Virus record (IMG/VR): IMGVR_UViG_3300033070_000552 | Span: 1 to 64,000 of that record | From: a virus | Lineage: Duplodnaviria > Caudoviricetes | Strand: one strand, 5' to 3' | DNA: 64,000 bases | Part shown: piece by piece, positions 60,796 to 64,000 of the stretch | How the letters are laid out: every line of letters starts with the position of its first letter | Numbering within the stretch: the stretch's first letter is position 1 | Notes under the pieces: model-generated | What the model saw: only the letters and a program-made list of their open reading frames with translations | Databases searched by the model: none | Told to the model about the DNA's origin: nothing | Program-made: the position numbers and the translations under genes

Positions 60796-61446
60796 TCAGC
60801 AATCGCGAAGAACCCCGTTCTGGAGCATCGCGTGGTACGAGCCCTTGAGAATCGATCCGCCCCCGGCCCCGCACGTCAGCCCGTTCTTGTCGACGGTGAT
60901 GTTCGGGGCCTCGCCGTGACGCACCCAGCACTTGTGCTCGTGGTCGCCCTTCCTGTCGCAGTTCGAGCATTGCCCGTCGATCATCCAGTCGCCGCCAGGG
61001 GTCCGCACCACGAGGCACCGACCGTCGGGTCCGCGATTGCGTCGATCCTTGTCGCTCTGGTACTGGAGATGACCGTCGACCATCCAGTCGGCGAACCACA
61101 TCGCGCCGGGCGGTGCGTTTCGCATCTCGATAATCTCGCCGGTATCGGTGCGCTTCCAGAAGTTCTTCCACGACGCGACCCGGTAGTCCTTGTCAGTGAA
61201 CTCGTACCCGCAGGCGCACCTTCTCGGCCATCGCGGGTCATTGTCGCCCGGGGTCCAGCTATACGACCGCTCGATCTCGCTGGAGGGGTCAACGACGAGA
61301 TCGACCTCGGCGTGGCAGTATCCGAGCTTGGGATTTGCCGGGCAGGCGACCCGCCCATCGAACCCACGGAAATAGCTCAGCGTCTTGGGGTGCGGAAGCG
61401 GGGTATCGTGAACCGGATCGATCATAAAGCACTTGATCTCTGCCAT
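60796..61446 (-). CDS. Cys/His-rich protein with DUF6527-like C-terminus
   Basis: GPDGRCLVVRTPGGDWMID...CSNC...HKCWVRHG...TCGAGGGSI...YHAMLQNGVL. Confidence 0.5.
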   Translation of the reverse strand: MAEIKCFMIDPVHDTPLPHPKTLSYFRGFDGRVACPANPKLGYCHAEVDLVVDPSSEIERSYSWTPGDNDPRWPRRCACGYEFTDKDYRVASWKNFWKRTDTGEIIEMRNAPPGAMWFADWMVDGHLQYQSDKDRRNRGPDGRCLVVRTPGGDWMIDGQCSNCDRKGDHEHKCWVRHGEAPNITVDKNGLTCGAGGGSILKGSYHAMLQNGVLRDC

Positions 61447-61451
61447 TGGGT

Positions 61452-61763
61452 TTATCCCGGTTTCGATGTGATGAGTTCGCCGCTGGTGATGTTGCCGTGC
61501 CAGTGGCCCGTCTTTTCCGCGTTGACCGATGGTTCCAAGGTGATCGTCTCGAACGTGTCGCCGGTTCGATTCCAGACCAGACCCTCGACGTGGGGATGCG
61601 GCCACGGAACCCCAAGCCTGGACAACATCGCGTCGTCGAACGAGGGCTTGAACAAAACCGTAATCCGCGTGGCCCGGCAGTGGGGGCACTCGAACGAAAG
61701 CCCGGTTACGGGTCCGTCTGAGAACGCCCTTGTCCATCGCGGATTAAAGTCCGTCAATCGCAT
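61452..61763 (-). CDS. DUF6527-like zinc-binding protein
   Basis: FECPHC...WNRTGDTFETITLEPSV...HWHGNITSG. Confidence 0.6.
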   Translation of the reverse strand: MRLTDFNPRWTRAFSDGPVTGLSFECPHCRATRITVLFKPSFDDAMLSRLGVPWPHPHVEGLVWNRTGDTFETITLEPSVNAEKTGHWHGNITSGELITSKPG

Positions 61764-61772
61764 GGCTTTATC

Positions 61773-62597
61773 CTATCGCCCCACGATCGGCCTCGCCCCC
61801 GCGTCGAAGATTCGTATCTCGCTCTTAATATCGATCGACCCCCGGAGGATCACGGCCCGGGTCGACGGCACCGACAACGCCCCCGCGACCTGGACCTTCC
61901 AGAACTGGTCCTTGGTGCAGAGCCGGTACCCGCGACCCTCGACGAACCACCCTACGCATGGCGAGAGGGGCTTGCCCGGGGCGATGTACTTTGACCACGC
62001 CTCCATCGTGCGGTGCTGCTTGTACATCGACGGCGACGGAACCCTCCCGGGCATCGCCGTCGATGGCGTGAAGTCGTCGTCCTCGTGGTAGTAGAGCGAT
62101 GGAGAGATTTCGTCCCACCCCTTGGCGAACTCTTCGAGCATCGCGATACGCGACGGCATGAGCGGGGAGTTCTCGCCGTGGATGAGGTACGCCTGGTCGA
62201 CGTACGCCGAGAGCGTGAGGTGGGGGTACGCCGCCCTGATCTCGTCCCTCGCGAGCTTCATCTCGCGGAACGGCCACCCCGCCCACTCGTCCCGTTCCTC
62301 GTGGAAGTGAACAACGATTCGGTAGGGGCCCTGCGCCGGGATCAGTATCTTTCGCTTCGACACCGCGACGAAGGGATCGATCGTTAGCGCCTCGGCGAAC
62401 GAGGGGAAGACGGCCCGGTGCCAGTTGGTCATGAACGCCGTCGTCTGGTGGTTGGCCCCCCACGGGGCCGGGGGATGGCCTAGGAAGCCCCCGGAGCGAT
62501 TCGAGATCGCGGTCGCGTATTCGACGGACCTCCCCGTCGAAACGGCAGGGAAAGGCTTGTAGGGGAAGGAAGCGAGGTCGGACGGGTGGTCGGTCAC
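61773..62597 (-). CDS. putative glycoside-hydrolase-like (TIM-barrel) protein
   Basis: GTG 62597 with GGGGA SD; alternating alpha/beta pattern, DEISPSLYY, aromatic-rich; follows the holin-like gene. Function not established. Confidence 0.35.
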   Translation of the reverse strand: MTDHPSDLASFPYKPFPAVSTGRSVEYATAISNRSGGFLGHPPAPWGANHQTTAFMTNWHRAVFPSFAEALTIDPFVAVSKRKILIPAQGPYRIVVHFHEERDEWAGWPFREMKLARDEIRAAYPHLTLSAYVDQAYLIHGENSPLMPSRIAMLEEFAKGWDEISPSLYYHEDDDFTPSTAMPGRVPSPSMYKQHRTMEAWSKYIAPGKPLSPCVGWFVEGRGYRLCTKDQFWKVQVAGALSVPSTRAVILRGSIDIKSEIRIFDAGARPIVGR

Positions 62598-62616
62598 AAC
62601 AAATCCCCGTGGGAGG

Positions 62617-63276
62617 TCAAGTCTTGAGGAAGATCGATCCAAGGAACCCGATGATATTGCCGCTGGGGTCACGCAAGACCCTCGCCTCGGCCCGCACCTT
62701 GATGAACCCCTGCGGTGAAACGAGCCGGTACTCCATCTCGAAGTTGCGGTTCTGGGCCGCCGACGCCTGCCACTCCTCGAACACCGCCGGGCGATCCTCG
62801 GGGTGGATGAACGTGAGCCAGCCGTTGCCCCGTGCGTCCTCGATTGTTTTATCGACCATGCGGAGATACGCGCGGTTGGCCCACTCGCACTTGCCGAAAC
62901 GGTCCGAGCGAAAGAGTGGGTCATCGTGCGTGTCGAGCAGGGCCTCGTACGAGCGGTCCTGGAGCACCTGCGAACGTCGGAGCCCGTCGACCGCATCGCG
63001 GAGCGAGGTGCCCCCGTTGGGAAGAAGCTCCTTCTCGATACGCGAGAGGCGGCCGTTGACGGTTTCTTCCATCCGGTCCATGCGGTCGTTGAACGATGCT
63101 GCGAACTTGATCACGGCAATAGCTCCTTGAACGATCTCGGTCGCGTGCTTTGCGAGAGCGACAATCCGCCCGCCGAACTTCCAGACCGCGACGATGGCGG
63201 TCATCGCCGAGCCCGCGAACACGACGACGATATCGAGGTTGTCCTGAGCCCATCGAAGCGAGGCGAGTAGTGACAT
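62617..63276 (-). CDS. membrane-anchored PAS-domain protein with holin-like N-terminus
   Basis: One TM segment (IVVVFAGSAMTAIVAVW), LPNGGTSLRDAVD linker, then PAS/PAC: ANRAYLRMV...GNGWLTFIHPEDR...EYRL...VLRDPSGNIIGFLGS. Confidence 0.85.
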   Translation of the reverse strand: MSLLASLRWAQDNLDIVVVFAGSAMTAIVAVWKFGGRIVALAKHATEIVQGAIAVIKFAASFNDRMDRMEETVNGRLSRIEKELLPNGGTSLRDAVDGLRRSQVLQDRSYEALLDTHDDPLFRSDRFGKCEWANRAYLRMVDKTIEDARGNGWLTFIHPEDRPAVFEEWQASAAQNRNFEMEYRLVSPQGFIKVRAEARVLRDPSGNIIGFLGSIFLKT

Positions 63277-63312
63277 ACTGACTCCCGTGTAGGTGCGGTA
63301 GCGAAACTCCGA

Positions 63313-63999
63313 TCAGGGGCGGGCAGCGACCCACGCCGAGCCGTTGTAGTACACGACCTTGTTGGTGAGCGTCGACCAATTGGTCGAGGGCGAGCCACCC
63401 GATCCCGCCGACGAGGTGTTGTAGAAGGTGTCTCCCGTGGTCGGGGTCGTCGCGTTGGTCTTGTCGCCCGCCATCTGCAGGTCCTGATGGTTGACGGTGT
63501 AGTAGTCGGTCGACGCCCCGTTGACGATGAGCTGGTTGGTCGTCGTCACGAAACGAAGCCCAGCCCCGCCCGCGATGCGGAAGTTGGGCGAGCCCGCCGA
63601 TCCGCCGCAGCGAATGAAGAACGGAATCTGCGCCGCCGAGAACAGCGTGTCGGAGATCAGCAGCGAACCCTTGCCCGCCGCGTCGATGGCGTACGTCGCG
63701 TAGCCGTTCGAGGTCGCGTAGAACGTGCAACCCGACACGTTGAGGTGGCTCGCGGTAGTCGTGTTGCCCCACCGCACGCCCGTCCCCGTGGACATCGTTG
63801 AGCTAAGCGTGCAGTTGCGGATCGTTCCCGAGGTGACGACCCCGCTCCCGCCGATCTGAAAGAGCTTCCCGAGGTTCCCCGTCCTGGCGTAACAGTTGGA
63901 GACGTTGAGCCAGTTCACGGTCCCGAGGATATTGATCAGCGCCGTCTTGAGCGTCGCGTCGTTCGAGGTCTTGAGGTTCTCGATCACGAGCGAGTCCAT
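63313..63999 (-). CDS. tail spike / fibre with right-handed beta-helix (C-terminal part; 5' end outside the window)
   Basis: Repeated I/V-x-N-C-T/Y beta-helix rungs (IENLKT, VSNCYA, IRNCTL, VSGCTF, ISDTLF); ends VVYYNGSAWV. Confidence 0.7.
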   Translation of the reverse strand: MDSLVIENLKTSNDATLKTALINILGTVNWLNVSNCYARTGNLGKLFQIGGSGVVTSGTIRNCTLSSTMSTGTGVRWGNTTTASHLNVSGCTFYATSNGYATYAIDAAGKGSLLISDTLFSAAQIPFFIRCGGSAGSPNFRIAGGAGLRFVTTTNQLIVNGASTDYYTVNHQDLQMAGDKTNATTPTTGDTFYNTSSAGSGGSPSTNWSTLTNKVVYYNGSAWVAARP

Positions 64000-64000
64000 C

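Follow-up and report, generated by a model that had tools for sequence, protein, structure and literature searches.

Near the right-hand end of the window analysed here, i.e., bases 1-64000 of IMG/VR record IMGVR_UViG_3300033070_000552 (whole record 88,798 bp, hereafter G000), a phage gene encodes a 219-amino-acid (aa) protein, P0001, in which a single N-terminal transmembrane (TM) helix, a predicted cytoplasmic neck, and a C-terminal PAS domain follow one another. We propose, giving the proposal roughly even chances, that this TM-PAS protein is a lysis regulator of the LysF1b/LysA2b type, with one transmembrane domain (TMD) in N-out/C-in orientation and a PAS input, and is not itself the holin. 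Genomic linkage marks the family to which the protein belongs as a lysis-cassette accessory protein. We found no counterpart of the PAS fusion among cultured phages or in the literature searched; queries on PAS domains in phage lysis yielded no paper. The gene and its parts are as follows.

62617..63276 including the stop codon, minus strand: gene for the TM-neck-PAS protein (P0001), 219 aa, start codon ATG (open reading frame (ORF) list, translation, homologues at 30-72% identity, third-codon-position GC (GC3) of 0.81)
63282..63286, minus strand: Shine-Dalgarno-like GGGAG, five nt before the ATG (direct sequence reading)
63181..63237, minus strand: single TM helix, residues 14-32 (hydropathy, positive-inside count)
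62986..63030, minus strand: predicted cytoplasmic neck ELLPNGGTSLRDAVD, residues 83-97 (conservation, PHROG 9869 match, AlphaFold2)
62620..62949, minus strand: PAS domain of the PAS_3 type, residues ~110-219 (Pfam, AlphaFold2, Foldseek against the PDB, PDB profiles)

From its N-terminus, the protein consists of a short acidic tail, the hydrophobic helix, a basic helical stretch ending in ELLPNGGTSLRDAVD, and the PAS domain. An earlier note on this DNA, made from the letters alone, had described a single N-terminal TM helix, and residues 14-32 are indeed the sole TM segment found (Kyte-Doolittle hydropathy 2.07-2.3). The neck and PAS domain are predicted to be cytoplasmic and the N-terminal tail to lie outside. 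Within the neck, residues 85-97 read LPNGGTSLRDAVD, and the AlphaFold2 model places a loop at residues 84-91 between two helices, i.e., a helix-loop-helix break; the linker helices were modelled at low confidence, with a predicted local distance difference test score (pLDDT) of 41-48.

The C-terminal half matches the Pfam families PAS_3 (E 1.9e-13; 50.9 bits, gathering cut-off 25.6), PAS (E 3.7e-11; 43.5 bits, cut-off 22.6), and PAS_4 (28.8 bits, cut-off 23.1), and it carries the PAS_3-type signature GxGW...HPED...W. In the AlphaFold2 model, helices flank an antiparallel sheet of five strands, and pLDDT exceeds 90 across approximately residues 120-219. Foldseek matches of the PAS/LOV/DosP kind numbered at least 500 at E <= 0.001; those against the PDB, with E about 1e-7, included DosP, LOV, and HIF/ARNT as well as further PAS domains; PDB profile matches were to PAS domains from GGDEF and kinase proteins. 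The structural check that the earlier note had suggested for this half of the protein confirmed the PAS fold, in agreement with Pfam and Foldseek, and the ORF ends straight after it. No kinase or DNA-binding domain follows, as had also been claimed, and neither does a cyclase (translation, Pfam). The earlier description of a sensor with no output domain is better read as a protein with an N-terminal output, formed by the conserved neck and the anchor. By sequence inspection, the LOV cysteine motif GxNCRFLQ is absent, the equivalent stretch being GNGWLTFIHPED, without Cys, and there is no obvious haem ligand or F-alpha proximal His; the sole conserved His is that of the HP(D/E)D motif, which is generic to PAS_3. 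The PAS domain may be just a dimerisation driver.

By profile and sequence comparison, the TM-PAS protein is assigned both to the PAS superfamily and to PHROG 9869, a functionally uncharacterised family of small phage membrane proteins. PHROG 9869 matches residues 21-101 of the TM-PAS protein (E 1.8e-5), other PAS fusions (E 4.5e-5 and 7.3e-6), and a 104-aa protein lacking the PAS domain on contig L013 (E 1.2e-17). The PNGGxSL(R/K)D motif on the cytoplasmic side of a lone N-terminal TM helix is a feature of this PHROG family, and the TM-PAS protein has it. The whole TM-neck-PAS architecture is kept in ten close homologues, in which E83, P86, N87, G88, G89, S91, L92, R93, and D94 are invariant. 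To delimit the family, we scanned viral, metagenome, and genome collections and cultured phages with motif patterns, which gave 115 motif-bearing ORFs in 42 clusters at 60% identity, spanning 25-72% GC. Twenty-three of these clusters are PAS fusions, mostly 185-250 aa long (a few are cut by a contig end) and on contigs of 25-68% GC, and the cluster of the G000 gene itself makes a 24th; the remaining 19 clusters hold short forms (77-184 aa), whose neck leads into a short tail, helical or coiled.

Among 27 diverse PAS fusions that were aligned, P86, N87, G88, G89, S91, and D94 are 100% conserved, exceeding almost any position of the PAS domain, and the PNGGxS(L)(R/K)D core as a whole is 85-100% conserved. 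The PAS domains share ~30% identity and keep a few structural positions (G128, W153, and W169), the TM helix is poorly conserved, and the helix joining the neck to the PAS domain has a fairly constant length. A positive-inside count found more K/R after the helix, i.e., N-out/C-in, in 39 of 43 family representatives; in the two representatives with the opposite charge count, the ORF as called contains no hydrophobic helix, and truncation or a wrong start seems likely. High-GC actinophage members, and no others, carry a second motif between the TM helix and the PNGG neck, approximately F-x-DDW-x-G...RPGVP-x-RPGVM-x-RL.

P0001 as a lone query against viral contigs returned no match, and an alignment query was needed; a word index returned no short relatives; and a phmmer search with the 105-aa N-terminus against 1.8 billion representatives returned five matches, two of them coiled-coil noise. 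A family hidden Markov model (HMM) that we built from the 43 representatives recognises short forms in the cultured phages mu1/6 (gp52), P1312 (P1312_040), TurkishDelight (gp37), and Laroye (gp72) at E values of 5e-12 to 1e-22. No PAS fusion was found by tblastn in 50,697 cultured-phage records, and in 185,579 species genomes the motif and a PAS domain occur together only on one 2.9-kb contig of a metagenome-assembled genome; the PAS fusion therefore looks like a trait of uncultured, mostly non-integrated phages.

Among these cultured phages, the short form is found within or alongside the lysis genes. In Streptomyces phage mu1/6, the gene order is endolysin (gp50), holin (gp51), short form (gp52), and in Streptomyces phage TurkishDelight it is tailspike, endolysin (gp35), holin (gp36), short form (gp37). 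The short form of Thermobifida phage P1312 (gene 040) immediately precedes the amidase gene 041, and in Arthrobacter phage Laroye and relatives the short form gp72, named "holin" in RefSeq, adjoins gp73. All four short forms bear the neck motif. Two annotations in these genomes are probably mistaken: P1312_040 (L015:5851-6294), listed in GenBank as "sensory protein kinase CreC", is a short TM-neck protein, and Laroye gp73 (L258:4202-4654), labelled "membrane associated protein", has by eye a CHAP/NlpC-type look, with Cys and His motifs.

So that neighbours would not be picked by eye, we also searched one whole IMG/VR record per cluster, 23 in all, for Pfam families of peptidoglycan hydrolases, using eight families over all records and three further families over those still without a match. 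A hydrolase was detected in 12 of the 23 records and lies no more than 1.1 kb from the motif gene in 7 of these 12, where 0.88 would be expected under uniform placement (Poisson-binomial P about 3e-6, under a null that disregards the modular layout of phage genomes). Two of the seven hydrolase-proximal records are PAS fusions: in L202, a Peptidase_M15_4 gene lies ~1.0 kb downstream and small 2-TM genes flank both sides, and in L218 a Peptidase_M15_3 gene lies ~1.0 kb downstream. On contig L101, from the same cluster as L218, the genes run in the order PAS fusion, 107-aa 3-TM protein, 67-aa protein, holin (PHROG 3427), endolysin (PHROG 894). Small multi-TM genes are only approximately twofold denser near the motif gene (9 near, 11 far), a count to which we give no weight, as the detector missed known holins. 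The earlier note had stated that small phage membrane proteins with PNGGxSxRD linkers occur near lysis genes, and the annotated cassettes of mu1/6, TurkishDelight, P1312, and Laroye, together with the whole-record scans, bear this out. A survey of genomic context had been suggested as one check, with unlinked homologues counting against a lysis role, and homologues of the TM-PAS protein proved to be linked to lysis genes. We conclude that the linkage is strong at the family level and not universal among PAS fusions.

Other PAS fusions have other surroundings. That of L012 lies between tail-fibre-like genes and the terminase gene, and those of the low-GC contigs L005, L007, and L008 are accompanied by a conserved 319-aa partner of unknown function (L005:6777-7736, L007:8932-9888, L008:8839-9798) encoded close upstream; in L007 (where the flanking genes are on the opposite strand) and L008 the two genes are directly adjacent, and in L005 the partner lies two genes off. 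Just upstream of the L005 fusion, a further gene (L005:8204-9970, plus strand) encodes a 588-aa ankyrin-repeat protein whose C-terminal part matches PF00211, the adenylate/guanylate cyclase catalytic domain (E 1.5e-5); this protein is absent from the sister contig L008. An all-against-all BLAST of neighbours across lineages found none conserved beyond close relatives.

The known proteins that the TM-PAS protein most calls to mind are the one-TMD regulators of mycobacteriophages: LysF1b (Girr gp35, NormanBulbieJr gp33) and LysA2b (D29 gp30), of Pfam family DUF2746 (PF10874). LysF1b, a 124-aa protein with one TMD in N-out/C-in orientation in Girr and NormanBulbieJr, phages of the F1 cluster, is required for efficient lysis, and mutations suppressing its deletion lie in the 2-TMD partner LysF1a (PMC13056207). 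Deletion of either LysF1b or LysA2b causes severe lysis defects (PMC13056207; bioRxiv 10.64898/2026.08.27.747656). The LysF1b homologue of D29, LysA2b, is encoded among tail genes, outside the cassette, and replacing it with LysF1b restores lysis with a shifted triggering time; in the model put forward there, activation of the 2-TMD protein, which is otherwise held inactive, depends on its cognate one-TMD regulator, and a lipoprotein serves as accessory (bioRxiv 10.64898/2026.08.27.747656). The TM-PAS protein resembles these regulators in having a single N-terminal TMD with a short tail outside, followed by basic residues and a helical cytoplasmic body (the last from a low-confidence model). 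Linkage to endolysin and 2-TMD genes is shared at the level of the family, and in G000 is positional only; a position among tail genes, as for D29 gp30, is also possible. The sole segment that aligns is NLRDEITR of D29 gp30 with SLRDAVNR of the TM-PAS family. In contrast, LysF1b and LysA2b have neither a PAS domain nor a PNGG loop, and their hosts are Gram-positive.

Homology to DUF2746 was tested for and not found. Neither the TM-PAS protein (E <= 1) nor a short form (E <= 0.01) matches it in Pfam searches, PF10874 is unmatched in G000 and in four short-form records at E <= 1, and comparison with D29 gp30 gave an hhalign probability of 0.3-0.9% and, with the family HMM, an hmmsearch E value of 0.11. 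The TM-PAS protein is best described, by analogy, as LysF1b-like in architecture and context, and not as a shown member of the LysF1b family. Mycobacteriophage Ms6 Gp5 and one-TM cassette proteins of Gordonia phages have the same build, with one TM helix, N-out/C-in orientation, and a cytoplasmic bulk, and have no PAS domain; Gp5 interacts with the 2-TMD protein Gp4 and tunes lysis timing (PMC6116114, PMC9671378). When family members were searched against cultured phage genomes by tblastn, no mycobacteriophage or Gordonia phage was returned.

Homology, as distinct from this analogy, connects the TM-PAS protein to the short forms of PHROG 9869, which share the anchor and an ELxPN(G/S/A/H)GxS(L/I)(R/K)D neck and differ in their size and in having a short helical or coiled tail where the TM-PAS protein has its PAS domain; the DDWxG...RPGVPxRPGVM motif of the actinophage members is absent from the TM-PAS protein. 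In phage T4, the antiholins RI and RIII modulate holin triggering, RI sensing in the periplasm via a signal-anchor-release (SAR) anchor and RIII being soluble. We take these to be comparable to the TM-PAS protein as sensor-type accessory proteins, with no homology known between them and no PAS domain known in the T4 proteins. Short stand-alone PAS/LOV proteins lacking an effector domain, such as DsLOV, are among the Foldseek matches and likewise consist of a lone PAS core signalling through flanking helices. These are soluble flavin photoreceptors, however, whereas the TM-PAS protein lacks the LOV cysteine and its N-terminal flanking helix enters a membrane module.

Put together, the anchor and the invariant ELxPNGGxSLRD neck belong to the large phage family PHROG 9869, and a PAS domain replaces the usual short helical tail. 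As to mechanism, the neck would be the business end, through which the one-TMD protein would act on a separate holin-like partner with multiple TMDs, activating it and setting its triggering time, and the PAS input would make this activation step dependent on a cytoplasmic cue or on PAS-mediated dimerisation. The architecture, the predicted topology, the PAS fold, the family, and the closeness of the family to endolysin genes are shown; for G000 in particular, we infer the lysis role, the partner, and any sensing. A fuller version, in which the PNGGxSLRD neck switches on the multi-TMD partner and the PAS domain gates it by host redox, energy, or metabolite state, would amount to a sensor-gated lysis clock present in at least 24 lineages (25-68% GC) of uncultured phages that infect many host groups; we put this forward tentatively and consider it doubtful in its entirety. 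A still more speculative variant holds that the strictly conserved Asn-Gly is a chemical or processing site contributing to timing.

Several observations weigh against a regulator of lysis. Nowhere in G000 did we detect a family of endolysins, holins, or spanins: PF00959, PF01464, PF01510, PF01471, PF05838, PF05257, and PF08924 are unmatched in its 88.8 kb, and tblastn of five endolysins, three holins, and one peptidase against it returned no match. The immediate neighbours of the TM-PAS gene are without known function, and its PAS domain is without a cofactor signature. Elsewhere, the L102 PAS fusion lies beside SSB and UvsX genes, that of L115 beside a clamp loader gene, and that of L144 before a methyltransferase gene. 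Finally, no homology to the studied LysF1b and LysA2b was detected, and the mechanism is therefore borrowed by analogy. Neither the seven common hydrolase or peptidoglycan-binding Pfam families nor the five endolysin queries found a match; the lysis enzyme of G000 is probably of an undescribed type.

The earlier note had called the protein holin-like. The association with lysis that this implied stands at the family level; the holin identity fares less well, since a separate holin is present in annotated cassettes and the topology is N-out/C-in, both of which give the protein the look of a regulator. A single-TMD hole-former whose oligomerisation is controlled by its PAS domain would accord with the RefSeq name "holin" for the Arthrobacter phage homologues, with a weak match of the L013 short form to holin PHROG 15431 (E 1.9e-4), and with the lack of any other recognised holin family in G000. 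Nevertheless, a separate holin adjoins the family member in mu1/6 (gp51), TurkishDelight (gp36), and L101 (PHROG 3427), and one TMD with a predicted cytoplasmic C-terminus is the opposite of the class III topology, in which T4 T is N-in with a large periplasmic C-terminal domain. A poorly conserved TM helix beside an invariant cytoplasmic neck also suits a regulator more than a pore former, and the analogous one-TMD protein Ms6 Gp5 fails to complement lambda S (PMC6116114). On balance we judge it very unlikely that the TM-PAS protein is the holin. It is also quite improbable, to our minds, that the protein serves to manipulate host signalling, its tethered PAS domain heterodimerising with host PAS kinases, cyclases, or chemoreceptors and the lysis ancestry of its anchor being incidental. 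The domain is of the generic PAS_3 type seen in kinases and GGDEF proteins, the ankyrin protein with a cyclase-like domain adjoins the L005 gene in the low-GC phages, and in several PAS lineages no lysis gene was detected near the fusion; yet the strongest conservation is in the neck and not on the PAS surface, two PAS lineages have kept the endolysin linkage, and no clear donor or host look-alike emerged, the best cellular PAS matches being 36-41% identical and spread over many phyla. The decoy for host PAS kinases that the earlier note had suggested likewise gained no support and is a slight possibility.

Another role at the envelope, whether control of an exported beta-helix glycanase or glycan toolkit, superinfection exclusion, or a tail-assembly step, strikes us as unlikely. 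In its favour, the TM-PAS gene is probably co-transcribed with a gene for a beta-helix protein bearing a signal peptide, and family members follow tail-fibre-like genes in L012 and several actinophages. The latter position does not discriminate, because lysis cassettes commonly follow tail genes; moreover, the statistical linkage is to peptidoglycan hydrolases, and other lineages have not kept a beta-helix gene beside the family member. The reading of the TM-PAS protein as a one-TMD lysis regulator is the one we prefer.

At the locus itself, the order of genes along transcription in G000 is a 129-aa 2-TM protein, a 231-aa lipoprotein, three small proteins of unknown function, a 769-aa beta-helix protein, the TM-PAS protein, a 275-aa protein, and a DUF6527 protein, after which come further genes and then GroES, a DNA methylase, and TerL. 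Those of interest are listed here.

63313..64000 in the window, minus strand: 3' part of the upstream gene for the 769-aa beta-helix protein, whole at 63313-65622 of the record (PHROG, Pfam)
61773..62600, minus strand: downstream 275-aa protein, candidate lysis enzyme by position only, no signal peptide
61452-61763, minus strand: DUF6527 protein, two genes downstream of the TM-PAS gene (Pfam E 3.9e-6; PHROG 34484 and 15183)
67730-68119 of the record, minus strand: 129-aa protein with two hydrophobic helices, candidate holin-like gene (L002:4995-6119 covers the pair formed with the next gene)
66995-67690 of the record, minus strand: 231-aa lipoprotein with a lipobox-like signal (...FFGC), candidate spanin-like or accessory lipoprotein

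Only 36 nt separate the TM-PAS gene from the stop of the preceding beta-helix gene, and co-transcription of the two is therefore likely. The earlier note had placed the gene between a tail-spike gene and a putative hydrolase gene. The first label is supported, as the beta-helix protein matches a tail spike PHROG (E 7e-15) and, weakly, a pectate-lyase Pfam family; it has a Sec-like N-terminus in place of a virion-binding one. The second is unverified: searches of Pfam, of PHROGs, and of the PDB by both sequence and profile detected no hydrolase signature in the 275-aa protein and gave no match, and Pfam searches on seven homologues came back empty. Six homologues were found, all phage-like, with approximately 66 invariant positions, and one of them (P0021) seems to lie on the same contig as a TM-PAS homologue (P0004), the longest contig of each being 8673 bp. 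A single-sequence AlphaFold2 model of the 275-aa protein reached a pLDDT of 36, and an Atlas search gave a weak GH56-like lead (rank 10, score 0.91). The protein may be a candidate novel endolysin or glycanase. PHROG and Pfam searches on 15 genes neighbouring the TM-PAS gene yielded almost nothing; the 129-aa 2-TM protein and the 231-aa lipoprotein, whose adjacent genes lie ~4 kb upstream of the TM-PAS gene and beyond the end of the window, have no match in either. The 313-aa ORF at 60796-61737, next after the DUF6527 gene, overlaps that gene and probably starts later than listed.

A related phage, L259 (IMGVR_UViG_3300033067_001029), has a 279-aa homologue of the 275-aa protein (52% identity) and a beta-helix relative that shares a repeated TKTGAF...VLATSPG segment with the G000 protein. 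Between these two genes, L259:1739-2924 encodes two small membrane proteins, of 80 aa (1-TM) and 77 aa (2-TM), and a lipoprotein of 222 aa with an LLGGC lipobox, and the three-gene set is succeeded by the same run of genes to TerL and portal as in G000. These three proteins have no sequence similarity to the products of G000 genes; such dissimilarity is usual among lysis membrane proteins. On positional evidence, the L259 set, which fills the slot of the TM-PAS gene, looks like a compact Gram-negative lysis cassette without a recognisable family. In G000, the link to lysis is positional only.

G000 has a CheckV completeness of 100% and a GC content of 63.7%, and its minus strand carries nearly every gene. 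Its TerL is at most 27% identical to that of any cultured phage, and no host can therefore be inferred. Two runs of one river-metagenome study contain 24-27% of the window's sampled words, a hint, by word sharing, that a river is a possible habitat. Among public sequencing runs, no RNA dataset is listed as carrying G000 sequence.

Lysis timing sets the burst size and fitness of a phage, and, T4 lysis inhibition excepted, descriptions of it usually invoke an internal holin clock. Genetic characterisation of one-TMD regulators as activators of a 2-TMD holin-like protein came only in 2026, and in mycobacteriophages only. The survey presented here delimits a large family, uncharacterised to date, whose nine-residue motif is almost invariant and is also found in cultured Streptomyces and Arthrobacter phages. 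If the TM-PAS protein is a lysis regulator with a PAS input, it would be a compact switch of ~200 aa and the first sign of phages coupling the burst decision to a sensed intracellular signal.

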